NCBI GenBank assembly: GCA_965263065.1
Contig: CBDHGH010000003.1
Location: 1,727,153 to 1,791,152, forward strand
Length of the DNA stretch: 64,000 bases
DNA from: Dehalococcoidia bacterium
GTDB lineage: Bacteria; Chloroflexota; Dehalococcoidia; Bin125
Reading direction: 5' to 3'
The notes below the pieces were generated by a model, which saw nothing but the letters and a program-made list of their open reading frames with translations, made no database searches and was not told where the DNA came from. Of the stretch, positions 7,607 through 19,625 are shown piece by piece; position 1 is the first letter of the stretch, and every line of letters begins with the position of its first letter. Position numbers and translations under genes: made by a program.

Positions 7607-7635
7607 TGGCGAGGCTCCCGCCCGTTCCTATGGCG

Positions 7636-8049: not shown

Positions 8050-8065
8050 TGGGGGTCCTTTCCCC

Positions 8066-8119
8066 GCCCCCGCCCGCGCGGGCGGGGGCCGTCGTGGCGC
8101 CGCGCGGTGGCGGCGCGGC
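8066..8119 (-). terminator. two GC-rich hairpins downstream of the major capsid gene
   Basis: Perfect 24-nt palindrome GCCCCCGCCCGCGCGGGCGGGGGC (8066-8089) plus a 7-bp stem at 8099-8119. No clear U-tract. Confidence 0.3.
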
Positions 8120-8160
8120 TGTGCCGGTGTTGCAGTGCTGGTCTCGCTGGGGCGCCGTCG

Positions 8161-9450
8161 CTAGGCGCTGATCTGCTGCAGGCGGAAGGCGCGCGGCTGC
8201 GTCACCCGACCGCCGACCCGCTGCCGCCCGACGAAGCCGATCTGGTTCTTCTCGGCCAGCTGCTGGTCGCCGTCGATGCGCTGCACGGCGAAGCCCACCC
8301 GGTCGACCACGACGTAGCGGCTGAAGTCGCCGAACGCGATCGGCGTCGCCGCCGCCGCCACCGCCGGCATGAACTCCGAGCTCACCACCGCCCGTCCCAG
8401 CAGCGTCTCCGGCGTCGCCGCGAAGCCGCCCACCCAGAGGTACTGGTTGTTGCCGTCCTTGAGCTTGCGGATCGCGTCCTCGGTGGCGCTGTTGGTCACG
8501 AAGACGGCCGCGTCGCGGTACTGCGCCGGCAGCCCGTAGAACAGGTCGAGCAGCCCGTCGGCCGTCACCTTCGAGGCGTGCCCGCTCTTGACCGTCGGCA
8601 CGCCCGCCGTGTTGAGCAGCCCCAGCGGCTTGCCGACGCCGTCGCCGCTCAGGAACGCCTCCTCGTCGGACAGCCGCACCTCGTCGCCGAACAGCCCGGC
8701 CAGGATGTCGGTGAAGGGGACGGCGCTGTCCTCGACGAGGTTGCGGCTGGCCTTGGTCGTCAGCATCGCCGTGTGCACGGGGATGCGGATCGCGCCGAAG
8801 GTCGGCTCCGACTCCGCCGCGCCCTCGGCCGGCTGCTCATCGACCCAGGTGCGGCGCACGGCGCTGGCGTGGATGTCGTTGCCGCCCTCGATCGTGGGCC
8901 ACTCGACCGTGTCCCGCGACGTGGGGATCGCCGTCACGTGCTGGCGCAGGCCCGCCCGCGCGCCGGCCGCCCGCAGGATCTGCGCCTGCCAATCGACCGG
9001 CACCAGGTGGCCGCCCTCGCTGTCGGTGCCGGCCGTGAGCGCCTTCACGTAGGCGCCGCCCAGGGCCAGCACGGCGCGCTCGCCGTGGTGCACGTAGGTC
9101 TCGAACGCCTTGCGGTACAGCGCCGGTCGCTGCCGCTCGCCGGTCTCGCCACTGCCGACGCCCATGCCGCTGCCAACCGCCGCGGCGTTCGGGTCGCGCA
9201 GTCGCTGCGTCGCGCCGCGCTCGCCGTCGTGCCAGGCCTGTTCCAACTCCGAGACCGCGGCGTGGCGCTCCCGCTCGGCCAGGGCCGACTCGTAGGCCTG
9301 CCATTCCTCCCGGCCGCGCGCGATCAGGTCGTCGACCCGGGCGCCGACGTCGGCCGGCAGCTCCTCGCCGCCGTCGTGTTGTTCCAGCAGGGCGCGCGCT
9401 TCGGTCATCGTCTGGCGCGCGCGCTCGCGCAGGTCGTTACTGGTGGGCAT
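8161..9450 (-). CDS. HK97-family phage major capsid protein
   Basis: 429 aa. An N-terminal coiled-coil delta-like region is followed by ...ALTAGTDSEGGHLVPVDWQAQILR..., typical of the HK97 fold family. Sits after the protease. Confidence 0.85.
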   Translation of the reverse strand: MPTSNDLRERARQTMTEARALLEQHDGGEELPADVGARVDDLIARGREEWQAYESALAERERHAAVSELEQAWHDGERGATQRLRDPNAAAVGSGMGVGSGETGERQRPALYRKAFETYVHHGERAVLALGGAYVKALTAGTDSEGGHLVPVDWQAQILRAAGARAGLRQHVTAIPTSRDTVEWPTIEGGNDIHASAVRRTWVDEQPAEGAAESEPTFGAIRIPVHTAMLTTKASRNLVEDSAVPFTDILAGLFGDEVRLSDEEAFLSGDGVGKPLGLLNTAGVPTVKSGHASKVTADGLLDLFYGLPAQYRDAAVFVTNSATEDAIRKLKDGNNQYLWVGGFAATPETLLGRAVVSSEFMPAVAAAATPIAFGDFSRYVVVDRVGFAVQRIDGDQQLAEKNQIGFVGRQRVGGRVTQPRAFRLQQISA

Positions 9451-9501
9451 TGGGACTCCTTGACTGTGCTCTGCGATCGCTCGGTGGTTGGATGGGGTCG
9501 C

Positions 9502-10011
9502 TCAGGCGGGCGCCGGCGGCAGTGCGACATCGAGCCGCCGGCGCAGCGCGACGGCCGGCGCCCGCGGCCGCGCCGCCGGTCGCTCCAGCGGGCGCCCATC
9601 GAGCGCCGTCACACGCGCGTTCGGGTTGGCGGCCAGCGTCACCAGGCTGATCTCGACGAGGTCCAGCGTCTCGATGCGGCGCAGCGTGCGCCCGTCGCGA
9701 TGCTCGAAGCGCACCCGCCGCGGCACGAAGCCGATGCTGCACTCGCGCAGCGACCCGCGCTCGATCAGCGCCAGCGCGTCGGCCGCCCGCCGCGTGGGCG
9801 CGAGCGCCGCCTCGAACCACAGCCCGCGCCCGTCCTCGCGGACCGCCACGACGTGGCCCAGCGGCTCCGCCATCGCGTGCTGCCAGAGCAGCGGCAGGCG
9901 GTGCCCGCGGGCGCGCAGCGTGGCGCGGAAGGCGCCCGGGTCGAGGGCGTCGGCCTGCGCGTCGGGCGCGCCGAAGACGGCGGCGTAGCCGCTGATCCGG
10001 CGGCCGCTCAC
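9502..10011 (-). CDS. HK97-family prohead protease
   Basis: GTG start in a GTGA overlap with the portal stop. VSGRRISGYAAVFGAPDAQADALDPGAFRATL...LLWQH...ECSIGF is typical of the S78/U35 family. Confidence 0.8.
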   Translation of the reverse strand: MSGRRISGYAAVFGAPDAQADALDPGAFRATLRARGHRLPLLWQHAMAEPLGHVVAVREDGRGLWFEAALAPTRRAADALALIERGSLRECSIGFVPRRVRFEHRDGRTLRRIETLDLVEISLVTLAANPNARVTALDGRPLERPAARPRAPAVALRRRLDVALPPAPA

Positions 10012-11324
10012 GACCCCGCCTCCAGCGCGGGCCGCGCGTCCAGCGTCGCGACCGCGCCGCCGTCGGGCCCCGCCCACGACGCCAGCCGCGCCCCGCCCGT
10101 CGCCGCCCCGCCCACGAAGCGGTCGCCGTCGTCGATCGGCTCCAGGCCCAGCCGGCGGCGTGCGTCGTTGACGGTCAGCGCCCCGGCCCGCAGGCCGGCC
10201 AGCGCCGACCGCTCGATGCTCTCGCGCGATTCGCGCAGCGCCGCCACCTGGCTGAAGTCGAAGGCCACGCGCAGCCCCTCGGGCCGCGGGCCGTACTCGG
10301 GCGTCAGCTCGGCGTTGAACTTCTCGGCCAAGCGGCGGTAGAGGGAGAGCATCGTGTTCTCCCAGAAGAAGCGCCGCGCCTCGGCCATGTTGCTGAACGT
10401 CGATCGATCGAGCCCCACCTTGACGCCCACCAGCACCGGCGGCACGCGGAAGGCGGCGCAGATGCGCGCCTCGGTCTGCGCGCGCAGCTCCGGGAAGGCC
10501 ATCTCCTCCTGGGTCAGGCCGATGCGCTGGAATTCGGCGTCGGCGTCGAGCACGCCCACCTGGAAGCGGCCCAAGAGGCCGCGGAAGCGCTCCGACCAGC
10601 GCCGCCCGATGCGGCTCGCCTCGGGCTCGCCGCCGCGCAGCGCGCGCTTGAGCTTGATGATCCCGAAGGGCACGGCGGCGTTGCGAAAGAACGCTTCGAC
10701 GAAGCGCGAGGCTTCGCTGTCGGTGTCGATCTGGCGCGCGGCGGCCCGCACCGGCGAGAGCCCCCAGAGGTCGTTGGCCGGGTCGGGCAGCCGCAGGTGG
10801 ATCACGCTCTCGGCGGCCAGCCGCGTCTCGCGGTCGCCCACGCGGTGCACGTATCCCGCCACCAGGCGTCGCTCCCCCGCCACGATCTGGACGCGGTCGG
10901 GGCGCAGCTTCCACAGCGCCTCGATGCCGCCGCCGGTCCCGCCCTCGGGCCCGCGCTGCTTCAACAGGAAGGCGTTGCCGTAGACCAGCAGGTCGGTCAG
11001 CAGCGCCTCGATCAGCTCGAAGCCCGACTGCTCGGGGTTGGGACGCCCCAGCAGCCGCTGCAGGCCGTGCCCCGGCTGCGGCCGTCCCTCCCCGTCCTCG
11101 ACGCGCAGATCGACCTCCGCCGCCGTCGAGGCGATCTCCCGCACGCAGGCGTAGACCACCTCGTTGCCGCGGAAGCCCTCGCTGGCCAGCCGGTCCAGGG
11201 GCGTCGGCGCGGGCTGCTCGAGCCCGGCCTGCCAGGACGGCACGAGCGCCAGGGCGCCCTTGAGGCCTAAGTCGTGCAATGCCTGCGTAGTCAGGGCGAA
11301 GGAACCGGCGTCGGGGAGGGGCAT
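10008..11324 (-). CDS. HK97-family phage portal protein
   Basis: 438-aa ORF with portal-like sequence (…NEVVYACVREIASTAAEVDLRV…). Followed directly by the protease and capsid genes. Confidence 0.85.
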   Translation of the reverse strand: MPLPDAGSFALTTQALHDLGLKGALALVPSWQAGLEQPAPTPLDRLASEGFRGNEVVYACVREIASTAAEVDLRVEDGEGRPQPGHGLQRLLGRPNPEQSGFELIEALLTDLLVYGNAFLLKQRGPEGGTGGGIEALWKLRPDRVQIVAGERRLVAGYVHRVGDRETRLAAESVIHLRLPDPANDLWGLSPVRAAARQIDTDSEASRFVEAFFRNAAVPFGIIKLKRALRGGEPEASRIGRRWSERFRGLLGRFQVGVLDADAEFQRIGLTQEEMAFPELRAQTEARICAAFRVPPVLVGVKVGLDRSTFSNMAEARRFFWENTMLSLYRRLAEKFNAELTPEYGPRPEGLRVAFDFSQVAALRESRESIERSALAGLRAGALTVNDARRRLGLEPIDDGDRFVGGAATGGARLASWAGPDGGAVATLDARPALEAGS

Positions 11325-11390
11325 CGTGCTCTCGGCGGCGCCGGCCCCTGCCGTCGCCCGGAGCGGGTGCGTCCCGCCGATCGTCCAAGT

Positions 11391-11427
11391 GAGATCAGAA
11401 TACGCGAAGCGCGGATATCTGTCTGCT
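11391..11427 (-). promoter_or_regulatory. promoter-like motif upstream of portal, related to the one upstream of terS
   Basis: Minus strand reads AGCAGACAGATATCCGCGCTTCGCGTATTCTGATCTC. It shares ACAGATA..CGCG..TCGCGT..GATC with 18505-18541. Possible CAGACA-N17-TATTCT promoter. Confidence 0.3.
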
Positions 11428-11544
11428 ATGCGGGGAACAGAGGGAAGCGGATCCCGCCCGGCGGTCGCTCAGGCCCCGGCGCGGTCGCCCGGCCTCCACC
11501 GCGACACGATCATCGACTGGTGATCGCCGCGCTCACCCACGCAA

Positions 11545-11602
11545 TTGAAACGCGAGTTTCAACTTCTCGAGAAGTTGAAACAAATCCGCTGATTTGTTTC
11601 AC
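11545..11602. repeat. array of four TTGAAAC/GTTTCAA half-sites including a perfect 26-nt palindrome
   Basis: TTGAAAC at 11545-11551, GTTTCAA at 11556-11562, TTGAAAC at 11575-11581, GTTTCAC at 11596-11602. GTTTCAACTTCTCGAGAAGTTGAAAC (11556-11581) is self-complementary. AT-rich patch in GC-rich DNA. Confidence 0.6.
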
Positions 11603-12036
11603 TCCCGACCGCGCGCCCCCTCCGCCCCCTGCTGCCCCGCCCGCGACTGCAGCGCCCGCAGCGGGACCGTCGCCGCCAGCACGCCGTCCACCCGCACCTC
11701 GAACGCGTACTGGCCCGGCCGCTTCAGCGCCAGACCGTTGATCTGGATGGGGTGCGTGAACTGATGCGGCTGCCCCGGCTCCATCCCCGGCGGCACGACC
11801 ACCCGCGCGTCGATCTTGAACAGCCGCGCGCCGTCCGCGTCGATGAAGCGCACGTCGAGGTCGTGCGCGCGATTGCCGTCCGCCGCCGACGCCTCCAGCC
11901 GCAGCACCAGCGTCATGCTGGGGTGCGTCGTGGGGAACTTCGGCGCCTGAATCGCGTCGAAGATGCCCAGCAGGTTGAGCTTGCCGTCCCGCGACGTGTT
12001 GGCCGCGTCGGCCAGCAGTGCCAAACTGACGTCCAT
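11599..12036 (-). CDS. hypothetical beta-rich protein (possibly DUF6941-like; family name unverified)
   Basis: 145 aa from ATG 12036: MDVSLALLADAANTSRDGKLNLLGIFDAIQAPKFPTTHPSMTLVLRLEA... The longer upstream ORF extension is Arg/Gly-rich noise. Confidence 0.5.
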   Translation of the reverse strand: MDVSLALLADAANTSRDGKLNLLGIFDAIQAPKFPTTHPSMTLVLRLEASAADGNRAHDLDVRFIDADGARLFKIDARVVVPPGMEPGQPHQFTHPIQINGLALKRPGQYAFEVRVDGVLAATVPLRALQSRAGQQGAEGARGRE

Positions 12037-12087
12037 GCCGGCAGTGTCGCACACGGGACGCCGCCGCCGACCCGAGAGGCGTTGCCC

Positions 12088-12495
12088 ATGCCCGACCCAG
12101 GACCGCTCGCCGAATCGACCGTGATGCCCTTCGTCACCTGCAGCGACCCCGAGCGCGCGAAAGCGTTCTACGGCACCACGCTGGGGCTGCCCCTGCTCTC
12201 GGAGGACGGCTTCGGGCTCGTCTTCGCGACCGGCGGCGTGGTGCTCCGCGTCGCCATCACCGCCGACGTGCAGCCGGCCCCCTACACGGTGCTCGGCTGG
12301 AACGTGCCCGACATCGCCGCCAGCCTCGCCGCGCTCAGCGCCGCCGGCGTCGAGATGCAGCGCTTCCCCGGCATGGATCAGGACGCCGACGGCATCTGGA
12401 CCGTGCCCGGCGGCGCCCGCGTCGCCTGGTTCCGCGACCCCGACGACAACCTGCTCTCGGTGACGCAGGCCCCGCCGTCGGACGGCTCCGCTTAG
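12088..12495 (+). CDS. VOC/glyoxalase-family protein
   Basis: 135 aa. FVTCSDPERAKAFYGTTLGLPLL...VAWFRDPDDNLLSV is typical of the glyoxalase/bleomycin-resistance fold. Confidence 0.7.
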   Translation: MPDPGPLAESTVMPFVTCSDPERAKAFYGTTLGLPLLSEDGFGLVFATGGVVLRVAITADVQPAPYTVLGWNVPDIAASLAALSAAGVEMQRFPGMDQDADGIWTVPGGARVAWFRDPDDNLLSVTQAPPSDGSA

Positions 12496-12567
12496 GCCGG
12501 GATCCATGGCCGCCCCCTGGTAGCCTGCTCGCGGGAGGACCGGAATCGCGAGAAGTGGAGCCAGGCG

Positions 12568-13251
12568 ATGGCGGGCAGACAGGACGTTGGGATGCACGAT
12601 GCTGCCCTGCAGTCCGGTTCGCTGCTGGAGGAAGGACTGAGGCGCCTAGAGGATGACTACCGGGGAGAACCAGAGACGCGGGACAGCATCCTCCAAGATC
12701 TGTCTTTGGGGCTTGAAGTCCTGCTGAAGCTAACCCTTCGGCTGTTTGGCGAAAGCGAAGAAAGCATCGGCCGCGATCACAAGATTCCCGCCTTGCTCGA
12801 CAAACTGCTGCCACTAGTGCCGACCCACTCGACGCCAGCAGGCCGTCGCGAGTTCCTTGAGGGCGATCCGCGGTTCCGGGAGTTGCTGGAGATGCTAGGC
12901 AGGCATGGCGGAGCGGGTAAGTACGGTGCTCTTGACGCGGCTTTGGGCAGGAACACGACCGGCGCGTCGGATCAGTCGGCCTCCGAGATGTGGAAAAAGA
13001 TGAAATTGGACCTGCTGGACGACGACTGGTTCAATCTGATGAAGTCCGATCCCGGGCACTTCTGCCAACAGTACTACCCGCACGTCTACCGGGTGGTCGG
13101 CACATCGCTGGCCTACGGTATCCACTCGCTGTGGTGGTTATGGGCGCACGGTCCTCAAGCCGAGCAAGGTAGGCGGTGGTATGTCGCCTTGACAGGCGAG
13201 CCAGGGCGTCGCGTGAACGGACTCGCGATGAAGTTCGGGGAGATGAACTAG
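12568..13251 (+). CDS. hypothetical protein with an HEPN-like N-terminal helical region
   Basis: 227-aa ORF in a lower-GC stretch. LSLGLEVLLKLTLRLFGESEESIGRDHKIPALLDKLL resembles the LE-x-LK...H-x-x-x-LL helices of HEPN domains (by eye). Confidence 0.45.
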   Translation: MAGRQDVGMHDAALQSGSLLEEGLRRLEDDYRGEPETRDSILQDLSLGLEVLLKLTLRLFGESEESIGRDHKIPALLDKLLPLVPTHSTPAGRREFLEGDPRFRELLEMLGRHGGAGKYGALDAALGRNTTGASDQSASEMWKKMKLDLLDDDWFNLMKSDPGHFCQQYYPHVYRVVGTSLAYGIHSLWWLWAHGPQAEQGRRWYVALTGEPGRRVNGLAMKFGEMN

Positions 13252-13324
13252 CTGCTCCGCGTCGCGCGGCTGGCGGAGCTGTCGGGGTAGGGTGGGGGGC
13301 GGCTGGGTGGAGACCAGCCGCGTG

Positions 13325-13368
13325 CAAGCAACTGCTCCCTTCAGTCATGACGAGGGGGCAGTTGCTTG
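13325..13368. terminator. 15-bp hairpin between convergent genes
   Basis: CAAGCAACTGCTCCC (13325-13339) pairs with GGGGGCAGTTGCTTG (13354-13368) with one mismatch and a 14-nt loop. No U-tract. Confidence 0.4.
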
Positions 13369-13393
13369 AATCACGTGATTCGAGGTTGACGTC

Positions 13394-13513
13394 CTACTTC
13401 TTCTTCCGCGGGGAGACAGTCTGCTTGTAGGTCGTCTTGGGATTGCGAGCCATCTGACGGTTCGAAACGAATCGACCATTGATCGCCGACTTGTTGACGG
13501 ATCGTTTGCCCAT
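13394..13513 (-). CDS. 39-aa basic microprotein
   Basis: Manual translation: MGKRSVNKSAINGRFVSNRQMARNPKTTYKQTVSPRKKK. AAAGGGGGG RBS upstream. Immediately downstream of the DUF3892 gene. Below the ORF-track size cutoff. Confidence 0.4.
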   Translation of the reverse strand: MGKRSVNKSAINGRFVSNRQMARNPKTTYKQTVSPRKKK

Positions 13514-13564
13514 GTTCTTGCGCCCCCCTTTCGGCCGTCGGTGCTGCCGGCCGAGCGATCCGGG

Positions 13565-13819
13565 TCAGCAGTTTGGAAGGTTGTCGAGATTGTCGGAACA
13601 GGAGGAGTTCGGATCGGTTCGGAGGTACTTGCCCGTGCGTCCGTGCACCACCTGCACAGTGGCGCGACGGCTGTACCCATCCTGCACGTAGTACTTGTGC
13701 ACCCCGGCCTCAATCTCGATGATCGCTAGTGCCTTGTTGGTCCGTCCCCACGACCCGCAGAGCGCGGTGATGTCGCGGTCGCTGTCCTTGCCCGTTCGGG
13801 TTACTCGTCGGTCTGCCAT
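13565..13819 (-). CDS. DUF3892 domain protein
   Basis: 84 aa from ATG 13819 with a GGAGGG RBS. ...DRDITALCGSWGRTNKALAIIEIEAGVHKYYVQDG...GKYLRTDPNSSCSDNLDNLPNC matches my recollection of the DUF3892 pattern. Confidence 0.65.
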   Translation of the reverse strand: MADRRVTRTGKDSDRDITALCGSWGRTNKALAIIEIEAGVHKYYVQDGYSRRATVQVVHGRTGKYLRTDPNSSCSDNLDNLPNC

Positions 13820-13829
13820 GATGCCCTCC

Positions 13830-13891
13830 CGCGCAATAGGATTGTGGTGTTGCGCAATCGCACCGTACACTGGCGTTGTGTGATTGCGCAA
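13830..13891 (-). promoter_or_regulatory. operator-like TTGCGCAA palindromes and promoter in front of the DUF3892 gene
   Basis: Perfect TTGCGCAA at 13850-13857 and 13884-13891, and a degenerate CGCGCAAT at 13830-13837. The minus strand reads TTGCGC-N18-TACGGT (-10 at 13862-13867). Confidence 0.55.
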
Positions 13892-13894
13892 GCG

Positions 13895-14533
13895 TCACAA
13901 CCCAGGAGGGGGATCCTCTGTGTCGCAGCTGTCAATCAAGCCCAAGTCCTGTAGGCAGATTCGCAACGTCGTGCGCGAGACCCCCCACCTCTTAGCGGTG
14001 CCGCGGAAGTCCCTCCGCACCTCGTCGATGCTCGCGCGCACCAAGTCTGCGGGCAGCAGCAGGTGCGCCGCGAAGTTGTTCGCGTTCACCTCCCGGATCC
14101 GTTCAACTTCCGACAGCCCTGGGGATTCACGGTGATAGCAGTATTGCTCGCCGGTCTTCGAATCGAGATCGAAGCTCAACTGTCTAGGATCGTCGGCGTC
14201 GTAGATCCAATGCCCCAACTCGTGGGCGAGCGTGAAGCGCTCTGGTCCGACGCATTGCTCGAACAGGGCCTCGTGCCTCGAGTTGAGCATGATTCGCCGC
14301 TCGCGCGGCGCCAGCGCTCCGAGGATCATGGCTTCGGGAGGCTCCGGGATATCACCCCAGAGGATCTGCAGTTTGTGGGTCTGTTCGACGATCAACTCGA
14401 TCGGCACCGGGAGCGTCACCGGCGTGCCGTGAATTGATGCGTGTCGAGCGAGGACTTCGCTTGCTTTCCTCGCGTGGAGGTGATCGGGCCGGGGAAAGGT
14501 TCGCTGGGGCATCAGCGCTTGCCGGCCTTCCAT
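13895..14533 (-). CDS. ImmA/IrrE-family metallopeptidase
   Basis: HELGH motif (FTLAHELGHWIY) plus NNFAAHLLLP. An alternative start at 14512 would give a TGATG overlap with the XRE stop. Confidence 0.75.
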   Translation of the reverse strand: MEGRQALMPQRTFPRPDHLHARKASEVLARHASIHGTPVTLPVPIELIVEQTHKLQILWGDIPEPPEAMILGALAPRERRIMLNSRHEALFEQCVGPERFTLAHELGHWIYDADDPRQLSFDLDSKTGEQYCYHRESPGLSEVERIREVNANNFAAHLLLPADLVRASIDEVRRDFRGTAKRWGVSRTTLRICLQDLGLIDSCDTEDPPPGL

Positions 14534-14811
14534 TTGCGTAGGTACTCAAGGGAGCCCGTGGGATCCGCGGCGAACTGCTCAATTAAGTCTGGCGGCATGC
14601 GTCTCGCCGCCAGGAGGAGTTCGTCGAAGTCGCAGTCGAAGAGATCTGCGATCTTCCGCAGAAGATCATCGCTCGGGTTCTCGCGGCCAGCTTCGATCTT
14701 CGAGATGTGAGGCACGCCGACGCCAACCGCGTCGGCGAGCTCACGCTGAGTCATGGCTCGCGTCAGTCGTTCGCGTTTTATCCGCTGCCCGACCGGCTCA
14801 ATGCCGCTCAC
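14512..14811 (-). CDS. XRE-family HTH transcriptional regulator (ImmR-like)
   Basis: VGQRIKRERLTRAMTQRELADAVGVGVPHISKIEAGRENPS. I place the start at GTG 14811, because the ORF-track extension to 14895 contains the TTGCGCAA site. Confidence 0.7.
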   Translation of the reverse strand: MSGIEPVGQRIKRERLTRAMTQRELADAVGVGVPHISKIEAGRENPSDDLLRKIADLFDCDFDELLLAARRMPPDLIEQFAADPTGSLEYLRKWKAGKR

Positions 14812-14838
14812 ATGAGTATTGTCGCCGTTCTTGTGGAC

Positions 14839-14846
14839 TTGCGCAA
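14839..14846 (-). promoter_or_regulatory. TTGCGCAA palindrome upstream of the XRE gene (putative autoregulatory operator/-35)
   Basis: Perfect 8-mer, about 27 nt upstream of GTG 14811. The minus strand reads TTGCGC-N17-GACAAT followed by 6 nt and then the GTG. Confidence 0.5.
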
Positions 14847-14946
14847 CTGCTGACCGGCCTTCCCGGTCGAACGCAGTTACTGCTTGGTTCCACATCTCCC
14901 CGCTCGTGGGGGATCCACGGTCGCCCCCCTACGACCCCCCACGCCA

Positions 14947-14975
14947 CCGCAGCACGGGACGACGCGCCGCCGCCA
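14947..14975. repeat. 29-nt repeat, copy A
   Basis: CCGCAGCACGGGACGACGCGCCGCCGCCA recurs at 15608-15636 with 2 mismatches. Confidence 0.6.
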
Positions 14976-15053
14976 GCGCCTCGTGTTGCCCGAAGAGGCC
15001 GCCTCAAGTACGAATGACCCGCCTGAAGGCAGCCAGCGAGGGGGCTCTCGGGG

Positions 15054-15338
15054 ATGGACCTGCGCTTCTACGTCGACCCCGAGACGAGAGACCCTCACAT
15101 CCACGGCCACGGAGTCGAAGATTACGAAGTCGAGGACGTGCTACGCTCGCCTCGCGAGGACAGGTCTGGACGAGATGACTCGCGCGTTGCCATCGGTCAA
15201 ACGCAAGAGGGGCGGTACCTCCGCGTGATCTACAAGCGTGATCCGGGACCGGACAGGTTCTTCGTGATCACCGCGTACGAGTTGACCGGCAAGCCCCTGA
15301 CTGCCTACCGGCGGCGGATGAGAAGGAGAGGCGCATGA
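15054..15338 (+). CDS. small toxin-fold protein (DUF4258/BrnT-like by eye)
   Basis: 94 aa. HIHGHGVEDYEVEDVLRSP...GRYLRVIYKRDPGPDRFFVITAYEL. ATGA overlap with the next gene. Confidence 0.5.
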   Translation: MDLRFYVDPETRDPHIHGHGVEDYEVEDVLRSPREDRSGRDDSRVAIGQTQEGRYLRVIYKRDPGPDRFFVITAYELTGKPLTAYRRRMRRRGA

Positions 15339-15502
15339 GCGAAGCAGTCAACCGCTTCCCGCCAGGCTGGGACGAAGCGCGCGTGCGCGACCTCATCGAG
15401 CACTACGAGTCGCAGACGGAGGACGAGGCGGTGGCGGAGGACGAGGCGGCGTTCGACGACAAGTCGCAGACGGTGATGCTGATCCCCAACGAGCTGGTCC
15501 CC
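15335..15502 (+). repeat. 168-nt direct repeat, copy 1
   Basis: About 94% identical by eye to 16127-16294 (roughly 10-11 mismatches). Both copies start exactly at the ATG. Confidence 0.85.
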
Positions 15503-15565
15503 GCCGTGCGGGCGCTCCTCCCGGCGTCCCCCGGCGCGACACCGGCGATGGCCGACCGGCCGTAG
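15335..15565 (+). CDS. acidic antitoxin-like protein (copy 1)
   Basis: 76 aa. NRFPPGWDEARVRDLIEHYESQTEDEAVAEDEAAFDDKSQTVMLIPNELVPAVRALL. Translationally coupled to the upstream toxin-like gene. Confidence 0.5.
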   Translation: MSEAVNRFPPGWDEARVRDLIEHYESQTEDEAVAEDEAAFDDKSQTVMLIPNELVPAVRALLPASPGATPAMADRP

Positions 15566-15607
15566 CAACTCGCCGGCGAGCACCCCCGACGTCCCCCCGA
15601 CCGCCCC

Positions 15608-15636
15608 CCGCAGCACCCGACGACGCGCCGCCGCCA
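15608..15636. repeat. 29-nt repeat, copy B
   Basis: CCGCAGCACCCGACGACGCGCCGCCGCCA. In addition, GATGGGGCGCTCCAGACGCCGCC at 15653-15675 recurs at 16298-16321. Confidence 0.6.
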
Positions 15637-15767
15637 TCCCATCCAGCCGGCCGATGGGGCGCTCCAGACGCCGCCGGTGCCGGCCGTACCCCGATCGCCC
15701 AGCCGCAGCGGCCCCCGATGCGGCATCGATCAACACGCCGTGCTTGAGGGGACGCTAGAATGACCTC

Positions 15768-16127
15768 ATGACGACGCCACAGATCGAGACCTCCCGCGAT
15801 TCGGCCGCCGACCTGCTGGAGCAGGCGCGGACCGAGCTCGCCGGCGGCGGCGTGCGCCAGGCGTCGGAGAAGGGCTGGGGGGCGGCGGCGCAGTCGGTCA
15901 AGGCCATCGCGGAGGCCCGCGACTGGGAGCATCGCAACCATGCGGCCCTGTTCCGGGCCGCCTCTCAACTCGCGGCGGAAGCCGGCGATGACGATATCCA
16001 TCGCTGGTTTCACACTGCCAGCAGCCTGCACGTCAACTTCTACGAGGATTGGCTGGACGCTGCCGCCGTGCGGGTGGGTCTGCAGGACGTCGAGCGGCTG
16101 GTGCGTCGCCTGTCGCTGATTGCGTGA
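15768..16127 (+). CDS. PaREP1-like (HEPN-superfamily-like) protein, paralog 1
   Basis: 119 aa. QASEKGWGAAAQSVKAIAEARDWEHRNHAALF...ASSLHVNFYED. Two paralogs at 31709 and 43494. Confidence 0.6.
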   Translation: MTTPQIETSRDSAADLLEQARTELAGGGVRQASEKGWGAAAQSVKAIAEARDWEHRNHAALFRAASQLAAEAGDDDIHRWFHTASSLHVNFYEDWLDAAAVRVGLQDVERLVRRLSLIA

Positions 16128-16294
16128 TGAGCGACACCGTCAACCGCTTCCCGCCCGGCTGGGACGAAGCGCGGGTGCGCGACCTCATCGAGCACTACGA
16201 GTCGCAGACGGAGGACGAGGCGGTGGCGGAGGACGAGGCGGCGTTCGAGGACACGTCGCAGACGGTGATGCTGATCCCCAATGAGCTGGTTCCC
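16127..16294 (+). repeat. 168-nt direct repeat, copy 2
   Basis: See copy 1. After 16294 the sequence rejoins copy-1 sequence about 150 nt further on, which indicates an internal deletion. Confidence 0.85.
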
Positions 16295-16378
16295 GGCGAT
16301 GGGGGCGCTCCAGACGCCGCCCCCTACGCCGGGCTCCAGAGGAAGCCGCAGCCGCCCAGCCGGCCGTCGCAGCGATAG
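16127..16378 (+). CDS. acidic antitoxin-like protein (copy 2, C-terminus replaced)
   Basis: TGATG overlap with the PaREP1-like stop. The first 56 aa are near-identical to copy 1. The tail GDGGAPDAAPYAGLQRKPQPPSRPSQR looks non-native and overlaps a minus-strand ORF. Confidence 0.4.
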   Translation: MSDTVNRFPPGWDEARVRDLIEHYESQTEDEAVAEDEAAFEDTSQTVMLIPNELVPGDGGAPDAAPYAGLQRKPQPPSRPSQR

Positions 16379-16485
16379 ACCGCGTTGAACGACCCGTAGT
16401 CCGGCCGGTCGAGCAGCAGCCCGCTCTGCAGGTTGCAGCGCGGGCAGACCGGCGTTGCGGTCATCGAGGGGTGCGTGGTGGTCAT
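16324..16485 (-). CDS. 53-aa zinc-ribbon microprotein downstream of terL
   Basis: Manual translation: MTTTHPSMTATPVCPRCNLQSGLLLDRPDYGSFNAVYRCDGRLGGCGFLWSPA. CPRC...C-x5-C pattern. GGAG sits 8 nt upstream. High GC3. Confidence 0.45.
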   Translation of the reverse strand: MTTTHPSMTATPVCPRCNLQSGLLLDRPDYGSFNAVYRCDGRLGGCGFLWSPA

Positions 16486-16541
16486 GTGGTGGCTCCGTTC
16501 TCAGCAGCAAGGGCCCGATATCGCGGGCGCGGCATCGTGGG

Positions 16542-17984
16542 CTAGTAGATCCCCGGGCTGCGCGCGCCGTCTTCGTAGGCGGCCCAGGCCAGGGCCAGCG
16601 AGTCGGCGAGGTCGGGGCTGACGCCGCGGCCGCCCCCCGCGTCGCCGTCGCGCGCGCGTTTCCGCACCCGGCGGCGACCGTCGCTGCCCAGCGAGTAGCG
16701 CACGCCGGCGAGCTGGCCCGCCAGTGCGTCGAACGTGGGCAGGCCGGGCGCGATGCGCAGATCTCCCTGCTCGATCGCGATCGCCAGGCGGCTGTACATC
16801 TCGGCGGCGCGGTTCACGTAGTGCGCCGCGTCCTCGGCGGTGGCGCCGAAGTTCACCGCCAGCGGCGCGATGGCCTGCTCGCACAGCCGGTCCGTGACGC
16901 CGCCGCCCAGGCCCGTGTCGTCGACCGCGACGGCCATGCCCGGCCGCGCCCGCAGCGCCTCGACGACCCTGCCGGCGGTCTCCATCAGCGACAGCCCGCG
17001 CCGCTCTTCCTGGCGCACCAGGCGCCCGTCCTCGATCCAGCTGAAGGCCGTGGCGTCGTCGCCGAAGCGCGCCACGTCGACGCCCAGCGCCGCCCGCGCC
17101 GGCGACGCCGGCGCGGCGGCGGCGGGCGCGATGTCCGCGGCCGCGGCGGCGTCGAGCGCGCTGCGCGAGAACAGGCTGTCGGCCGCTTGGCGCGGGAACT
17201 CCGCCAGCACCCGCGACCGATAGAGGTTGCTGCCCTCGCCCCACAGCGCCCGGCGCTGGCGCACCCACTCGGGCGAGACCAGGTAGTCGCGCTGCGGCTG
17301 GCCGGGCTGGAAGTTGGGCGTGTCGAAGGCCGAGATGCGGAAGCTGCGATAGGCCTCCGCCTGGCTGTGGAAGGCGTCGAAGAAGGGGCCGTCGGGCTTG
17401 GTCGGGTTGCCGATCATGAGCAGTCGCGTGCGGCCCGACGCCAGCACACCCTCGATGCCCGCGAAGACGTTGGGCGGCACCGCGCCCGGCTCGTCGACGA
17501 CGACCAGCACGTGCGGCGCGTGGAAGCCCTGGAAGCGCTCGGCGTTGTCGGTGCTCAGGCCCAGGCCGTACCAGCGCCCGCCCAGGCGCAATTCGGTGTC
17601 GAGCAGCGACCCGCCCAGCGGGTGCCGCGCCCCCGCGACCAGCCCCTGAATCGAGCGCCAGAGGACGTAGCGGACCTGCCGGAACGTCGGCGCCGTGGTC
17701 AGCACGACGGCGCCCGGGCGGGTGTAGAGGAACCAGCACACGCAGACGGCCGCGACCATCGTCTTGCCCGCCGCGTGGCACGACCGCACGGCGACGCGGG
17801 CGTGGTCGCGCACCGCCCGCGCGATCTCGCGCTGCTGCGCCCACAGGTCGACGTCCAGCACCTCGCGGGCGAAGAGCGCCGGGTCGCGGCCCCAGCGCCG
17901 CGCGTGGGCCTGCATCGCCGCGTCCAGGCCCGGCGGCGCCGGCGGGGCGCTACGCCTCGGTCGGGGACGCGTCGTCACGGTCAT
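16542..17984 (-). CDS. phage terminase large subunit
   Basis: 480 aa. Walker A-like SCHAAGKT and Walker B-like HVLVVVDEPG. Nuclease-domain-length C-terminus. Confidence 0.85.
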   Translation of the reverse strand: MTVTTRPRPRRSAPPAPPGLDAAMQAHARRWGRDPALFAREVLDVDLWAQQREIARAVRDHARVAVRSCHAAGKTMVAAVCVCWFLYTRPGAVVLTTAPTFRQVRYVLWRSIQGLVAGARHPLGGSLLDTELRLGGRWYGLGLSTDNAERFQGFHAPHVLVVVDEPGAVPPNVFAGIEGVLASGRTRLLMIGNPTKPDGPFFDAFHSQAEAYRSFRISAFDTPNFQPGQPQRDYLVSPEWVRQRRALWGEGSNLYRSRVLAEFPRQAADSLFSRSALDAAAAADIAPAAAAPASPARAALGVDVARFGDDATAFSWIEDGRLVRQEERRGLSLMETAGRVVEALRARPGMAVAVDDTGLGGGVTDRLCEQAIAPLAVNFGATAEDAAHYVNRAAEMYSRLAIAIEQGDLRIAPGLPTFDALAGQLAGVRYSLGSDGRRRVRKRARDGDAGGGRGVSPDLADSLALAWAAYEDGARSPGIY

Positions 17985-18504
17985 CCGCCCAGCCCTCGCC
18001 GTCGCCGTCGCCGTCCGCGTTGGGCTCCGCCGGGCCCGCCTCCGTCTCCGCCTCGACCAGCGCCTCCGGCTCGTCCAGGTAGTCCGTGCCCAGCTCGGCG
18101 AAGATGTCGCGCACCGTCAGCTGCCCCTGCTCGACGTCCTTCTCGTCGGCGTTGCGCAGCGATTCCCCCGTGCGGATGGTCTCCAGCAGCGCCCGCGCCG
18201 CCGCCGGCACGGACTTGTCGTCGCCCTCCTCCATCCGCCGCTCGATCACCTTCCACAGCGACGCTTGGGTCTGCGCACAGAGGTCGAAGGTGCGCGCCCG
18301 CTCTCTCGCCCGCTCCCGGCGGAACTGGTCCGTCTGCAGCGCCCGCACCCGCTCCAGGTCGTCCTTCACGCCCCGCCGCGAGCGACCCATGGACTCCGCG
18401 ATCTCGTCCACCGTGTATCCGCGCCGCGCGCGCTCCTCGACCAGCGTCAGCCGCTCCTTGAGTTTTCCCGTCCAGTCTCGTTGTAGAACATGTGTTCGTG
18501 TCAT
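17950..18504 (-). CDS. terminase small subunit-like HTH protein
   Basis: 184 aa from ATG 18504. TLVEERARRGYTVDEIAESMGRSRRGVKDDLER HTH and an acidic C-terminus. Overlaps the terL start by 35 nt. Confidence 0.5.
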   Translation of the reverse strand: MTRTHVLQRDWTGKLKERLTLVEERARRGYTVDEIAESMGRSRRGVKDDLERVRALQTDQFRRERARERARTFDLCAQTQASLWKVIERRMEEGDDKSVPAAARALLETIRTGESLRNADEKDVEQGQLTVRDIFAELGTDYLDEPEALVEAETEAGPAEPNADGDGDGEGWADDRDDASPTEA

Positions 18505-18511
18505 GCAGCGG

Positions 18512-18541
18512 ATCGTAGCACGCGATTCGCGTATCTGTGAA
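18512..18541 (-). promoter_or_regulatory. promoter-like TTCACA-N18-TACGAT, 7 nt upstream of the terS ATG (possible leaderless mRNA)
   Basis: The minus strand reads TTCACAGATACGCGAATCGCGTGCTACGATCCGCTGC-ATG and contains the palindrome ACGCGAATCGCGT. Confidence 0.3.
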
Positions 18542-18616
18542 GTGCGATCAGGCACCCACACGCGACGGGAGGCCGCCCCATGGCAGCCCCCGACACACTC
18601 GACGGGGTGGGGGAGG

Positions 18617-19252
18617 CTACGCGCCTTGCAGCAGCGCCACCATCTCGTCGACCGACGCGTGGCGCCAGTCGTCCCATTCGTCCGAGGTCTGCAGGTTCTT
18701 GTAGCGCTGGCGCAGGCGGGCGCGCATCTCGTCCTCGCTCTCGCCCTCCTGGCGCGTGAACTCCTTGCCGATCGCCGAGATCGTCTCCTCGGCCAGGCGC
18801 GGCCGCTCGATCCAACGCGCGACCTCCTCGAAGCCGTCCGCCGTGTAGAACACGACCACCGGGATCGACTCGAACTGCTGGCCGTCCTTGACGTTCGGGA
18901 ACTCGGCCATCATGTCCTGGTGGTCGTCGCGCTGGAAGATGCGCAGCTCCCAGCCCGCCGCCGCGCACATCGCCGCGACGACCGGCAACCCGCGATAGAC
19001 GTCCGGGCACCAGTCCTCGCCCAGGACCATGACCTTGTGGGCCGGCAGCGCCCGCAGCGCCGCCGCCTGCTCGGGCTTCAGCGCGTACTGCTCGATGTTG
19101 CGCGTGAAGCGCGCGGAGTTGTCCGAGCGTGCGCCGCCGTAGGGGCCGGGCCGGCCCAGGTTCTCCTCGGAACCGATGTAGGACAGGTAGGTGTCCCAGT
19201 CGTGCCCCTGCGCGAAGCGCTCCATCGTGACGACGCTGCTGGTGGTGGTCAT
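18617..19252 (-). CDS. thioredoxin-fold family protein
   Basis: 211 aa from ATG 19252 with an AGGAGA RBS. VMVLGEDWCPDVYRGLPVV single-Cys thioredoxin-like motif. Confidence 0.6.
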   Translation of the reverse strand: MTTTSSVVTMERFAQGHDWDTYLSYIGSEENLGRPGPYGGARSDNSARFTRNIEQYALKPEQAAALRALPAHKVMVLGEDWCPDVYRGLPVVAAMCAAAGWELRIFQRDDHQDMMAEFPNVKDGQQFESIPVVVFYTADGFEEVARWIERPRLAEETISAIGKEFTRQEGESEDEMRARLRQRYKNLQTSDEWDDWRHASVDEMVALLQGA

Positions 19253-19370
19253 GGCGTTCTCCTGCCGTTTGGACTCGCGCGCCCGGCGGGCGCGCCCGTG
19301 GTGTGCCCCGATGCTAGCAAACGTGGGCGCGTCGGGGCGGCTACCATGTGCGCGAAGGGAGCACCCGACC

Positions 19371-19625
19371 ATGCGAGCCCCACGGATCACCCCATCCGAC
19401 ACGCTCAGCGCCGTGCGGCGCTGGCTCGCCGGCGGCATGACGGAGCCGGAGGCCGACGCGCTCGTCGATGTGATCGGCGGGCTCTCGACCAAGGAAGACA
19501 TCCGGCCGCTCGCCACGCGCGAGGATCTCTACCGGGCGCTCATGATCCAGGCCGGCGTGTTCGCCGCGATCGTCGCCGCCGCCGCCGCCGTCGCCATCGT
19601 CGTCGTGCTGCTGCCCCGCCTCTGA
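19371..19625 (+). CDS. small tail-anchored membrane protein (DUF1640-like?), tandem copy 1
   Basis: 84 aa. C-terminal TM IQAGVFAAIVAAAAAVAIVVVLL. Preceded by the repeated CGGCTACCATGTGCGC-AAGGGAGCA leader. Confidence 0.5.
   Translation: MRAPRITPSDTLSAVRRWLAGGMTEPEADALVDVIGGLSTKEDIRPLATREDLYRALMIQAGVFAAIVAAAAAVAIVVVLLPRL

Follow-up and report, generated by a model that had tools for sequence, protein, structure and literature searches.

The genes for the terminase large subunit (terL) and the portal protein are usually neighbours, as in the nearest cultured phages: in Geobacillus phage GBK2 they lie 34 bp apart, and in Arthrobacter phage Kuleana a single 110-aa gene separates them. In the window, i.e., the whole 64,000-nt stretch of Dehalococcoidia DNA analysed, the gap is 5.2 kb and contains 12 small genes in both orientations (Table 1), close to the count of the first-pass annotation. 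The question is whether this interval is an accessory island, as was proposed there, and whether its genes form one system. The left end of the element falls outside the window.

Table 1. Features of the terL–portal interval and its borders (positions in the window)
Feature	Positions	Strand	Assignment and evidence
portal	10008-11324	-	PF04860, 2e-70; core; left anchor of the hotspot
slot B (DUF6941/portal)	11325-11598	.	empty in the window; one AT-rich palindromic element
DUF6941	11599-12036	-	PF22091, 5e-34; core; divides slot A from slot B
M1	12080-12495 (CDS 12088-12495)	+	VOC/glyoxalase/bleomycin-resistance superfamily; PF00903, 2e-7
M2	12543-13259 (CDS 12568-13251)	+	227-aa all-alpha protein, uncharacterised family; orphan
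M3, whole	13260-14921	-	insertion of 1.66 kb, nested between M2 and M4
M3 gene 4	13394-13513	-	39-aa very basic peptide, pI 12; conserved
M3 gene 3	13565-13819	-	84-aa DUF3892 protein; PF13031, 3e-8
M3 gene 2	13895-14533	-	ImmA/IrrE-type M78 Zn-metallopeptidase; PF06114, 9e-11; HELGH motif
M3 gene 1	14512-14895	-	XRE-family HTH repressor; HTH_3, 5e-16; PADLOC capH, 5e-7
M4, whole	14922-15666	+	DUF4258 and acidic partner1; flanked by degenerate gcvPB relics
M4 DUF4258	15054-15338	+	RelE/ParE superfamily; PF14076, 2e-6, 28.6 bits vs cut-off 25
M4 partner1	15335-15565	+	76 aa; 4-bp overlap with DUF4258
M5, whole	15667-16320	+	PaREP1/HEPN-T-family gene and partner2; PaREP1 CDS 15768-16127, PF05942, 4e-22
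M5 partner2	16127-16378	+	83 aa; paralog of partner1
Zn-ribbon ORF	16324-16485	-	53 aa; core; directly downstream of terL
terL	16542-17984	-	PHROG_2 terminase large subunit, 1e-35; core; right anchor of the hotspot

The terL–portal interval in related elements

The window was compared with eight elements from other Dehalococcoidia/Chloroflexota assemblies (L001-L006, L015, L020). Their flanking core genes are 66-99% identical at the amino acid level (terL 73-97%, portal 66-98%, capsid 80-99%), and the core order Trx9-terS-terL-Zn-ribbon-DUF6941-portal-protease-capsid is kept, while the cargo between terL and portal is swapped. All nine elements, including the window, differ in this content; in L004, nothing but the Zn-ribbon and DUF6941 genes lies here, and cargo is absent. 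Since the nine elements share the core yet differ in the intervening cargo, the hotspot reading of the first-pass annotation, with its unusual location inside the packaging-head module, is borne out, and sequence comparison supports a genuine exchange site for accessory cassettes in a phage-like element of high-GC Dehalococcoidia.

Among the genes initially assigned to the island, DUF6941 alone proved to be a conserved core phage gene: it is present in all eight relatives, lies on the terL/portal strand and shows dN/dS of 0.13-0.37 and GC3 of 0.95. The Zn-ribbon ORF is also core (58-96% identity in all relatives, GC3 0.96). These two genes thus delimit two cargo slots, and the order is terS-terL-Zn-ribbon-[slot A]-DUF6941-[slot B]-portal. 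In the window, slot A is full and slot B is empty except for an AT-rich multi-palindromic element of ~57 bp (11545-11601), single-copy within the window and folding at -28.9 kcal/mol (z = -4.6); copies of it border the SoFic gene in L001, L002, L003 and L020.

In the relatives, slot B holds 1.6-4.8 kb, with genes of SoFic/Fic, HigBA and DEDDh exonuclease. PADLOC recognised SoFic (3e-113) and a type IIG REase-MTase (8e-61) in the relatives' cargo, which further includes DEDDh exonuclease and Gp49/HigB with HigA. In the window, PADLOC and PHROGs revealed no defence effector, and the capH/capP-like regulator pair alone was recognised. The cassettes are delimited by sharp homology breakpoints; no recombinase, target-site duplication or defined att site accounting for their movement was found.

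The GC dip noticed initially is real: 1-kb windows at 13-15 kb have GC of 0.61-0.63, compared with 0.73-0.78 around them. GC3 is 0.70-0.77 in the six genes of the 2.8-kb sub-segment 12568-15338 and 0.92-0.97 in core genes, VOC, DUF6941 and both partners. Values of dN/dS are 0.06-0.49 for MCP, portal, DUF6941 and terL (seven or eight genomes; dS to ~0.75 or more), as high as 0.87 for Zn-ribbon and terS, which are short, and 0.12-0.52 for the cargo, with pN < pS in all four M3 genes. The cassettes are conserved and under purifying selection.

Cassettes of slot A

The VOC gene of M1 is present in L001 and L002 and absent from L003-5, L015 and L020, while L006 carries a different VOC gene. The M2 protein has 22 close homologues and 125 remote representatives, the latter free of Pfam domains, and itself matched nothing in Pfam, PADLOC or PHROG; its AF2 model (pLDDT 82.5) found no match in PDB or BFVD with Foldseek. 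It had been called HEPN-like, but no HEPN signature was present, and neither profile searches nor structure comparison gave any HEPN relationship; this identity is unsupported. M2 homologues occupy slot A of L015 and L020, adjoin an MmeI-like RM enzyme in L013 and adjoin IS21 in L016; in L015, L013 and L016, the gene stands without the other cassettes.

L018 and L020 lack M3: there, ~35 bp separate the 227-aa gene from the homologue of the window from 14922 onward. The XRE gene likely starts at the GTG at 14811, giving 99 aa (99-102 aa are called in L047 and L048), and the peptidase gene likely starts at 14512. Upstream of XRE lies the palindrome CTTGCGCAAC (14838-14847), with a -10-like GACAAT (14818-14823); a TTGCGCAA-type palindrome is also found upstream of XRE in L022, L025, L026 and L027. 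The peptidase, whose orthologues are 56-61% identical, matches PADLOC capP (3e-18) over profile positions 5-145 of 242, so that the GAF part is unmatched. The best PHROG matches of the XRE/ImmA pair are phage repressors and metalloproteases. The DUF3892 protein has at least 212 homologues of 83-86 aa, and its gene comes after XRE-ImmA in eight further loci. The 39-aa peptide is 64-74% identical in L021-23 and L027 (pN 0.17-0.21 vs pS 0.48-0.58), and its gene is called at the equivalent position in L047 and L048. The four-gene operon recurs in these six loci, none of them in phage context. L026 has the orthologous XRE-ImmA pair as well, but the next gene there encodes a CBASS cyclase (PADLOC 8e-127) in place of DUF3892. 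Genes upstream of XRE vary across every other locus; here, the pair stands head-to-head with the DUF4258 operon.

In M4, the assignment of DUF4258 as BrnT-like holds at the level of the RelE/ParE superfamily and not more narrowly; the other family calls of the first-pass annotation, HEPN apart, stand. The pI is 9.1 for DUF4258 and 4.2 for partner1, and degenerate relics of the gcvPB 3'-end lie on either side of the cassette (14944-14994 and 15602-15658). The DUF4258-partner pair recurs in L017-L020 and L028-L034 and is found in chromosomal defence-island settings near Cas genes, IS elements, reverse transcriptase and methylase. The partner genes of M4 and M5 share a 172-nt direct repeat with 94% identity (15335-15506 and 16127-16298). 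The partner family matches no known antitoxin and is modelled poorly by AF2 (pLDDT 66); some of its members stand as orphans among housekeeping genes.

M5 is present in L001. Because L002 has PaREP1 without partner2, and the conserved part of partner2 is truncated here at the core junction near 16297, PaREP1 is unlikely, judging from gene content, to be a classic lethal toxin. The His of its LHxNFY motif is kept and the Arg is absent.

As read from these distributions, slot A is a mosaic of five independently occurring cassettes and not one system. The gene combination, which was not recognised initially, thereby resolves into separate parts, and one pairing among them, XRE/ImmA with DUF3892, is already noted in the CapH/CapP literature.

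Proposed explanation and alternatives

The best explanation, with a probability of about 0.8, is a two-slot cassette hotspot in the packaging-head module of a conserved prophage-like head-tail element, with independent cassettes. The hotspot architecture and the independence of the cassettes are directly observed in the compared loci. Cassettes would be gained, lost and swapped through recombination at the slot borders, and each would act by itself. M1 may encode a small-molecule binding or detoxifying enzyme, while M2 encodes the 227-aa orphan protein, placed in other loci beside restriction enzymes and IS elements. By analogy with the protease-repressor switches CapH/CapP, IrrE/DdrO and ImmR/ImmA (Lau et al. 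2022; Calloji et al. 2026, bioRxiv 10.64898/2026.05.16.725639), M3 could be an autoregulated XRE repressor/ImmA-type protease switch, co-transcribed with DUF3892 and the 39-aa basic peptide as its putative output or effector; upon a stress or infection signal, the protease would cut the repressor and expression of DUF3892 and the peptide would rise. DUF4258 of M4 is predicted to be toxin-like, with a RelE/ParE fold, presumably an RNase, accompanied by the overlapping acidic partner, and M5 joins PaREP1, a protein of the HEPN-T type, to a shortened paralog of partner1. Accordingly labelled as toxin-antitoxin-like and regulator modules, the contents of slot A have putative functions, including all biochemical activities. 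The cassettes are presumably expressed from the resident element and may protect from other phages or from mobile DNA, or help to keep the element stable; for the copy in the window, a defence role is suggested.

The cassettes could instead be purely selfish addiction or stabilisation modules and hitch-hikers at a permissive site, with no anti-phage benefit to host or element. This is somewhat doubtful, although the DUF4258 and PaREP1 genes with their partners resemble toxin-antitoxin pairs, the gcvPB relics suggest movement of the DUF4258 cassette as a unit, and PADLOC identified no effector in the window. However, the relatives' slots hold the validated defence families SoFic and type IIG RM enzyme, the DUF4258 pair lies elsewhere beside Cas operons and methylases, and in L026 the regulator orthologue drives a CBASS cyclase; moreover, selfish modules are compatible with the cassette hotspot. 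That the region is junk in a decaying, non-functional prophage remnant is improbable: core genes are intact and combine GC3 of 0.95-0.97 with the low dN/dS given above, and cargo genes are likewise intact and under purifying selection, although the part right of terS shows no integrase, replication or lysis genes, the L005 portal appears as two tblastn segments, and partner2 is truncated.

A single new multi-gene defence system, with all parts of the 4.3-kb slot A content cooperating, would agree with the contiguity of the genes and with the head-to-head arrangement of XRE/ImmA and the DUF4258 operon, which is reported for CapH/CapP. It is nevertheless very improbable, given that the 227-aa gene, DUF4258 and partner occur in L018 and L020 without the XRE/ImmA block, L015 carries no cassette but the 227-aa gene, L001 and L002 have PaREP1 without M2-M4, the upstream neighbours of XRE change from locus to locus, and GC3 is unlike between modules. 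Least probable of all is that XRE/ImmA is the element's own lysogeny switch of the ImmR/ImmA type, a core regulator. Such pairs govern how ICEs and some prophages are induced, and the PHROG matches fit this role, but all eight relatives lack the block, comparison with L018 and L020 shows it as a clean insertion of 1.66 kb, and wherever it recurs in non-phage loci, it accompanies either DUF3892 and the 39-aa gene or a CBASS cyclase.

Comparison with known systems

Lau et al. (2022, bioRxiv 10.1101/2022.04.27.489752) noted CapH/CapP-like pairs with DUF3892 as an uncharacterised operon with a predicted link to defence. M3 shares with them the association of the regulator pair with DUF3892, and with CapH/CapP the XRE HTH protein beside an M78 HExxH peptidase, the PADLOC capP and capH matches and, in L026, the position before a CBASS cyclase. 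In contrast, the M3 peptidase (205-212 aa) consists of peptidase and HTH parts only and lacks GAF, ssDNA-binding in CapP and IrrE; its regulator genes point the same way as DUF3892, whereas CapH/CapP lie upstream on the opposite strand (divergent); and M3 has one DUF3892 gene plus the 39-aa basic peptide, which is unmentioned in the accounts of Lau 2022 and Calloji 2026.

DUF4258 is a RelE/ParE-superfamily toxin family of type II toxin-antitoxin modules (BECR) (Gerdes 2025, PMC11980606). M4 resembles them in the small basic DUF4258 protein with an overlapping small acidic downstream gene and in a pairing kept across many loci. It differs in the toxin-antitoxin order (antitoxin-toxin is listed for the family in Gerdes 2025) and in its partner, which lacks a known antitoxin domain and is found beside PaREP1 or as an orphan as well. 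Within the HEPN-T clade, PaREP1 is placed in the PaREP1/8 family, described as mainly archaeal (Anantharaman et al. 2013, PMC3710099); the M5 protein fits it by its Pfam match and by the retained His and missing Arg, as described. Unlike that family, the M5 copy is bacterial, on a phage-like element, its neighbour is an acidic 83-aa protein and not MNT or REase, and PaREP1 persists without the partner in L002.

The locus as a whole is comparable to prophage and satellite hotspots of anti-phage systems, the P2 gpA-gpQ locus and the P4 hotspot (Rousset et al. 2022, PMC9122126). The P2 hotspot lies between replication gpA and portal gpQ, beside cos, whereas the one described here is bounded by terL and portal, within the packaging-head module. 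In contrast to P2 and P4, it has two slots divided by the conserved DUF6941 gene, it resides in an uncultured lineage of Chloroflexota, the element is possibly not inducible as a phage, and the cargo roles are predicted. In common with both, a conserved phage core surrounds a short interval that varies among close relatives, and the cargo mixes known defence genes, toxin-antitoxin-like pairs and unknowns; as in P2, the portal gene is one anchor and packaging genes are near.

Gene content and two slots of the terL–portal interval

The head–tail cluster is encoded on the minus strand and includes genes of terS, terL, portal, prohead protease, an HK97-type capsid and tail proteins. An interval of 5.2 kb with 12 ORFs separates terL from portal. 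The Pfam search upheld most of the family assignments of the first-pass annotation, namely DUF6941, VOC, DUF3892, XRE, ImmA, DUF4258 and PaREP1. No family match was found for four ORFs, the 227-aa gene, the 39-aa gene and the small genes following DUF4258 (partner1) and PaREP1 (partner2); the 53-aa Zn-ribbon gene has no Pfam match either.

The GC content of the window is very high, about 0.73–0.78 in 1-kb windows outside the dip. The less GC-rich part of the island noticed earlier was confirmed and stands out more clearly at third codon positions, with GC3 values of 0.70–0.77 in the six genes of the region 12568–15338, 0.85 in PaREP1 and 0.92–0.97 in the core genes, DUF6941, VOC and both partner genes. 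Owing to the 75% GC content, spurious ORFs of great length occur antisense to, or out of frame with, the real genes (6691–10341 on the plus strand, 9502–11388 on the minus strand and others; one example, of 1216 aa on the plus strand, extends across the capsid and portal genes), and the true frames were picked by GC3. Promoter and terminator consensus scans gave essentially nothing in the GC-rich DNA of the window, and tRNA and Rfam scans of the window gave zero matches. Lower-GC patches are also present elsewhere: the patch 33599–35414 (GC 0.63) contains genes of an N6/N4 DNA methylase (PF01555, 3e-49) and a SmaI-like type II endonuclease (PF17411, 3e-10) and is probably a horizontally acquired restriction–modification system; two further patches (0.63–0.65) lie at 44001–45000 and 60001–62000.

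Coordinates of the features of the head–tail element in the window and in related loci (L001–L003 and L020, related elements; L018, a chromosomal locus; M1–M5, cassettes of slot A)
Locus	Feature	Position	Strand	Match or remark
Window	Trx9 (Thioredoxin_9 family)	18617–19516	as terS	55 bp upstream of terS; conserved in relatives
Window	terS-like, HTH-bearing	17950–18561	−	
Window	terL	16542–17984	−	PHROG_2 1e-35
Window	M5: PaREP1 + partner2	15667 to about 16320		PF05942 4e-22
Window	M4: DUF4258 + partner1	14922–15666		PF14076 28.6 bits (cut-off 25)
Window	M3: XRE-ImmA-DUF3892-39aa	13260–14921		HTH_3 5e-16; Peptidase_M78 9e-11; DUF3892 (Pfam) 3e-8
Window	M2: 227-aa gene	about 12543–13259		
Window	M1: VOC/glyoxalase	12080–12495		Pfam 2e-7
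Window	DUF6941	between terL and portal		Pfam 5e-34
Window	57-bp element	11545–11601		
Window	portal	10008–11324	−	PF04860 2e-70
Window	prohead protease		−	
Window	HK97-type capsid	8161–9450	−	
Window	tail genes	reaching down to 1	−	
Window	172-nt direct repeat	15335–15506; 16127–16298		94% identical
Window	gcvPB 3′-end relics	14944–14994; 15602–15658		degenerate; flank M4
Window	palindrome CTTGCGCAAC	14838–14847		
L018	duplicated gcvPB 3′ end	7508–7603		last 32 codons, 100% identical; upstream of M4
L020	gcvPB 3′-end relics	4669–4764; 5436–5567		flank M4
L001	57-bp element	16633–16689; 17922–17978		
L002	57-bp element	13069–13125; 14528–14584		
L003	57-bp element	12174–12230; 13465–13521		
L020	57-bp element	1704–1760; 2993–3049		

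With each species represented by one genome, a scan revealed six related elements, L001–L006, in MAGs of Dehalococcoidia/Chloroflexota (terL identity 73–97%), and two more, L015 and L020, were added through look-ups of cargo homologues. The complete chromosomes OZ244557.1 and OZ252031.1 carry L001 and L006, respectively. The gene order Trx9–terS–terL–Zn-ribbon...DUF6941...portal–protease–capsid is common to all eight relatives, and in every relative DUF6941 lies on the strand of terL and portal. In L004, the terL–portal gap holds the Zn-ribbon and DUF6941 genes only. Since these two genes are kept in all eight relatives, including L004 with nothing else, they are core genes; DUF6941 had been called correctly, but its listing among the genes of the island does not stand. 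The two genes delimit slot A (between Zn-ribbon and DUF6941) and slot B (between DUF6941 and portal), and the window and its eight relatives contain nine different cargo arrangements.

Cargo of the two slots in the window and in its eight relatives
Element	Slot A	Slot B
Window	VOC, 227-aa gene, XRE-ImmA-DUF3892-39aa, DUF4258 + partner1, PaREP1 + partner2	empty
L001	VOC, 1031-aa type IIG REase-MTase (PADLOC 8e-61), PaREP1 + partner	SoFic (PADLOC 3e-113)
L002	VOC, PaREP1	SoFic, second Fic gene
L003	empty	SoFic, HigA-like gene
L004	empty	empty
L005	empty	Gp49/HigB + HigA, DEDDh exonuclease, two Fic genes
L006	different VOC gene	empty
L015	227-aa gene, unassigned 278-aa gene	empty
L020	227-aa gene, DUF4258 + partner, PaREP1	SoFic

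The accessory hotspot between terL and portal proposed in the first-pass annotation is borne out by flanking core genes kept in the relatives and by cargo that differs in all nine elements; the near-contiguity of terL and portal, which had been sought in related clusters, was found in L004 and in the most closely related phages in culture, which share no more than 31% portal identity and have the two genes adjacent or one small gene apart. The comparison accordingly supports a hotspot with two slots, in the terL–portal region, whose accessory cassettes can be exchanged. The expected defence content was recognised by PADLOC in the slots of relatives, as SoFic and type IIG restriction–modification systems, while in the slot contents of the window capH/capP-like regulators alone were recognised, and no effector. 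For DUF6941, no close IMG/VR relative, PHROG family, PDB relative or papers were found; its identification with the small terL–portal gene of phage Kuleana was rejected, the two being unrelated.

Slot B of the window contains an AT-rich element of about 57 bp with interlocking palindromes around GTTTCAAC/GTTGAAAC, which folds well and is present in the window in one copy only. Direct copies of this element flank the SoFic gene in L001, L002, L003 and L020; single copies were found in the window and L015, both SoFic-less, and zero copies in L004–L006. The element could be a scar, a recombination site, a terminator or an operator array.

Cassettes of slot A

The breakpoints of slot A are clean by nucleotide comparison. 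Cassette M1 is an ordinary VOC-family gene. For the 227-aa protein of M2, AF2 predicts an all-alpha fold with confidence (pLDDT 82.5). Its earlier designation as HEPN-like is not supported, as the Rx4-6H motif is absent among the invariant residues and no relation to HEPN was found in sequence or fold; hhalign of the family against the PaREP1 profile gave a probability of 0.1. No Foldseek neighbour was detected in PDB or BFVD, and among these and the PDB sequence and profile searches no match fell below E = 0.1 except the unrelated MIS12 (profile, E = 0.001). Pfam domains were absent from the ORF and its remote relatives (profile search with 125 representatives, Pfam on 45), and the ORF has no PADLOC or PHROG match. 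A relation to Deinococcus DdrC, tempting because of the IrrE/DdrO link, was rejected, since the single-sequence match (E = 0.28) was gone with the profile. The gene was found in slot A, beside an MmeI-like restriction–modification enzyme and beside IS21; this genomic context suggests a mobile defence-island gene, nothing more. In the locus L013 (2923–6729), a 64%-identical homologue forms a divergent pair with a 978-aa MmeI-family type IIG enzyme, and the place held in the window by the 227-aa gene and its neighbours is taken up in L001 by a type IIG enzyme.

Four genes of M3 are co-directional in seven loci, namely, the window, L021–L023, L027, L047 and L048, and three, XRE-ImmA-DUF3892, in an eighth, L024. 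Identities to the window in L021–L023 and L027 are 56–61% for ImmA, 65–73% for DUF3892 and 64–74% for the 39-aa peptide; in L047 and L048, the 39-aa gene was called independently. For all four genes, pN is well below pS, which indicates that the basic 39-aa peptide (pI 12) is encoded by a real gene. The neighbour divergent to XRE is not conserved across the M3 loci. In both L018 and L020, about 35 bp separate the 227-aa gene from the downstream homologue of the window sequence that starts at 14922; judged by this arrangement, M3 is a nested insertion. Target-site duplications and terminal repeats were looked for at its borders, and none were found.

The regulatory pair of M3 consists of an XRE HTH protein and an adjacent M78 peptidase with the motif HELGH (PADLOC capP 3e-18, capH 5e-7). 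In CapH/CapP, an HTH repressor is paired with an ssDNA-activated peptidase, and DNA damage leads to cleavage of the repressor and derepression of immune operons. CapP is built of a peptidase, an HTH and a GAF part; ssDNA is bound in the groove between peptidase and GAF, and a cysteine-switch loop is located between HExxH and the third Zn ligand. The M3 peptidase has 205–212 aa, compared with 288 aa of E. coli CapP, lacks the GAF domain and matches the capP profile at positions 5–145 of 242 only. CapH/CapP are located upstream of the regulated operon on the opposite strand, whereas the M3 regulators are co-directional with DUF3892; CapH/CapP-like pairs with DUF3892 operons have already been listed, always divergent (Lau et al. 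2022, bioRxiv 10.1101/2022.04.27.489752). By analogy, M3 would work like a CapH/CapP or ImmR/ImmA switch, yet it is not a canonical CapP, being without GAF and matched over only the first 145 of 242 profile positions. A Cys in ..QYCYHRE.., in the loop after HELGH, is conserved across all orthologues inspected. The palindrome CTTGCGCAAC immediately precedes a -10-like motif, GACAAT, and the GTG at 14811 that is the probable start, and similar palindromes precede XRE in four relatives, which is consistent with putative autoregulation.

The closest metagenomic orthologues of XRE-ImmA (60% identity) were found in L026 (4687–6744), where this GAF-less ImmA-type regulator is attached to CBASS, being followed by a co-directional oligonucleotide cyclase gene (PADLOC 8e-127, SMODS 1e-16). 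This position ahead of a CBASS cyclase argues that XRE-ImmA is a portable regulator, with DUF3892 and the peptide as its output in M3. DUF3892 is a predicted dsRBD/HPF-like sensor of RNA or ribosomes, a prediction credited to Burroughs & Aravind 2020. A possible role of M3 is that of an autonomous abortive-infection system triggered by stress, in which DUF3892 would sense RNA or ribosomes and the basic peptide would be the effector.

Cassette M4 encodes a basic DUF4258 protein (pI 9.1), assigned to a RelE/ParE-superfamily toxin family (Gerdes 2025, PMC11980606), and acidic partner1 (76 aa, pI 4.2), with a 4-bp gene overlap. The pair is present in at least 10 other loci (L017–L020, L028–L034), where its neighbours are Cas genes, IS elements, reverse transcriptase and methylases. 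In L018, the 3′ end of the chromosomal gene gcvPB is duplicated upstream of M4, and the genuine gcvPB ends directly after the DUF4258–partner cassette; relics of the same 3′ end flank M4 in L020 and, in degenerate form, in the window. These relics suggest that M4 was traded with a chromosomal island beside the glycine-cleavage operon. M3 likewise adjoins the glycine-cleavage operon in L047, from the genome of L005. In the related chromosomes L018 and L047, TA/defence cargo in common with the phage slot is present at both flanks of the gcv operon.

The 172-nt direct repeat identifies partner1 and partner2 as paralogs. The partner family comprises at least 1784 homologues with a conserved core of about 60 aa. 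Its assignment to a known antitoxin family or fold was not supported: no Pfam or PADLOC match exists, the PDB profile search was empty, and orphan copies occur. The AF2 model of the partner is too poor for a fold search (pLDDT 66, pTM 0.29). Two sampled members are orphan genes, so the family is not strictly toxin-linked and may have a role beyond toxin neutralisation. Orphan genes of the family in L036–L044 have conserved housekeeping-like contexts, being either flanked by NifU and RNase H or followed by Uma2. The acidic partners (66–83 aa) could represent a promiscuous antitoxin domain for unrelated RelE-like and HEPN-like toxin folds.

PaREP1 belongs to the HEPN-T clade, in which His is kept and Arg is missing (Anantharaman et al. 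2013, PMC3710099). PaREP1 of M5 (119 aa) matches the profile and has the His without the Arg: LHxNFY is conserved in all three PaREP1 paralogs of the window, and the residue 6 positions upstream is H, S or A. The two further paralogs are located at 31643–32068 (44% identity to the island copy) and 43494–43877 (35%), and no partner-family gene was found beside them by tblastn. The conserved part of partner2 extends no further than the core junction near 16297, the remaining tail being read-through sequence antisense to the Zn-ribbon gene; in L002, PaREP1 is present without any partner. Given this partnerless PaREP1 and the truncated partner2, a role of PaREP1 as a classic lethal toxin is unlikely.

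Nature of the host element

A decaying prophage remnant is very unlikely in view of the low dN/dS of core and cargo genes: in comparisons with seven or eight relatives, values are 0.06–0.49 for capsid, portal, terL and DUF6941; they are 0.12–0.52 for the cargo and reach up to 0.87 for the short Zn-ribbon and terS genes. The right flank is shared between genomes: Trx9 and a luciferase-like monooxygenase are common to L001–L006 and L015 (seven genomes), and an XRE gene, a 943-aa unassigned gene and a ParA-like gene are common to L001–L006 (comparison over window 1–27779). The dS values are 0.05–0.8 for phage genes and flank alike, those of the phage genes being close to that of the luciferase-like gene. 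No phage-family matches were obtained for the right-flank genes tested, and no integrase, replication, lysis or lysogeny genes were found to the right of terS; the left end of the element lies outside the window.

The element occupies the same position across several species and looks co-inherited with the chromosome. An unchanged locus, divergence tracking that of the flank and purifying selection, which are among the marks of a GTA or domesticated cluster, were found; a GTA would in addition package host DNA. The element is possibly vertically inherited, domesticated or GTA-like, or it may be an inducible prophage. In the former case, the cluster would be no active temperate phage, and the terL–portal interval could be a landing pad of long standing, exchanging defence cassettes with the chromosomal island beside the glycine-cleavage operon. 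A GTA-like or domesticated host element with such a landing pad, taken jointly with M3 as an abortive-infection system and the partner as a promiscuous antitoxin, is rather unlikely to hold in full.

Significance and comparison with known hotspots

Prophage hotspots are a productive source of new anti-phage systems, but those described so far belong almost entirely to Enterobacteria and a small number of other cultured groups. The two-slot region indicates that the same logic is at work in an uncultured, very high-GC lineage of Chloroflexota, at a site within the packaging–head module where accessory genes are not usually sought, and it provides a search rule for cargo in metagenomes, terL–Zn-ribbon / DUF6941 / portal. 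The leads comprise the compact XRE-ImmA-DUF3892-peptide operon, the 227-aa orphan family, the acidic partner family pairing with two toxin folds and the possible vertical inheritance, which, if real, would bear on how domesticated phage-like clusters tolerate and use insertions. A defence role of the window copy is suggested by the same-slot cargo of relatives, the company of the cassettes elsewhere and family-level predictions. The closest counterpart is the defence hotspot of P2/P4 prophages and satellites (Rousset et al. 2022, PMC9122126), from which the region described here differs in its position, in being split by the conserved DUF6941 gene and in its host lineage.
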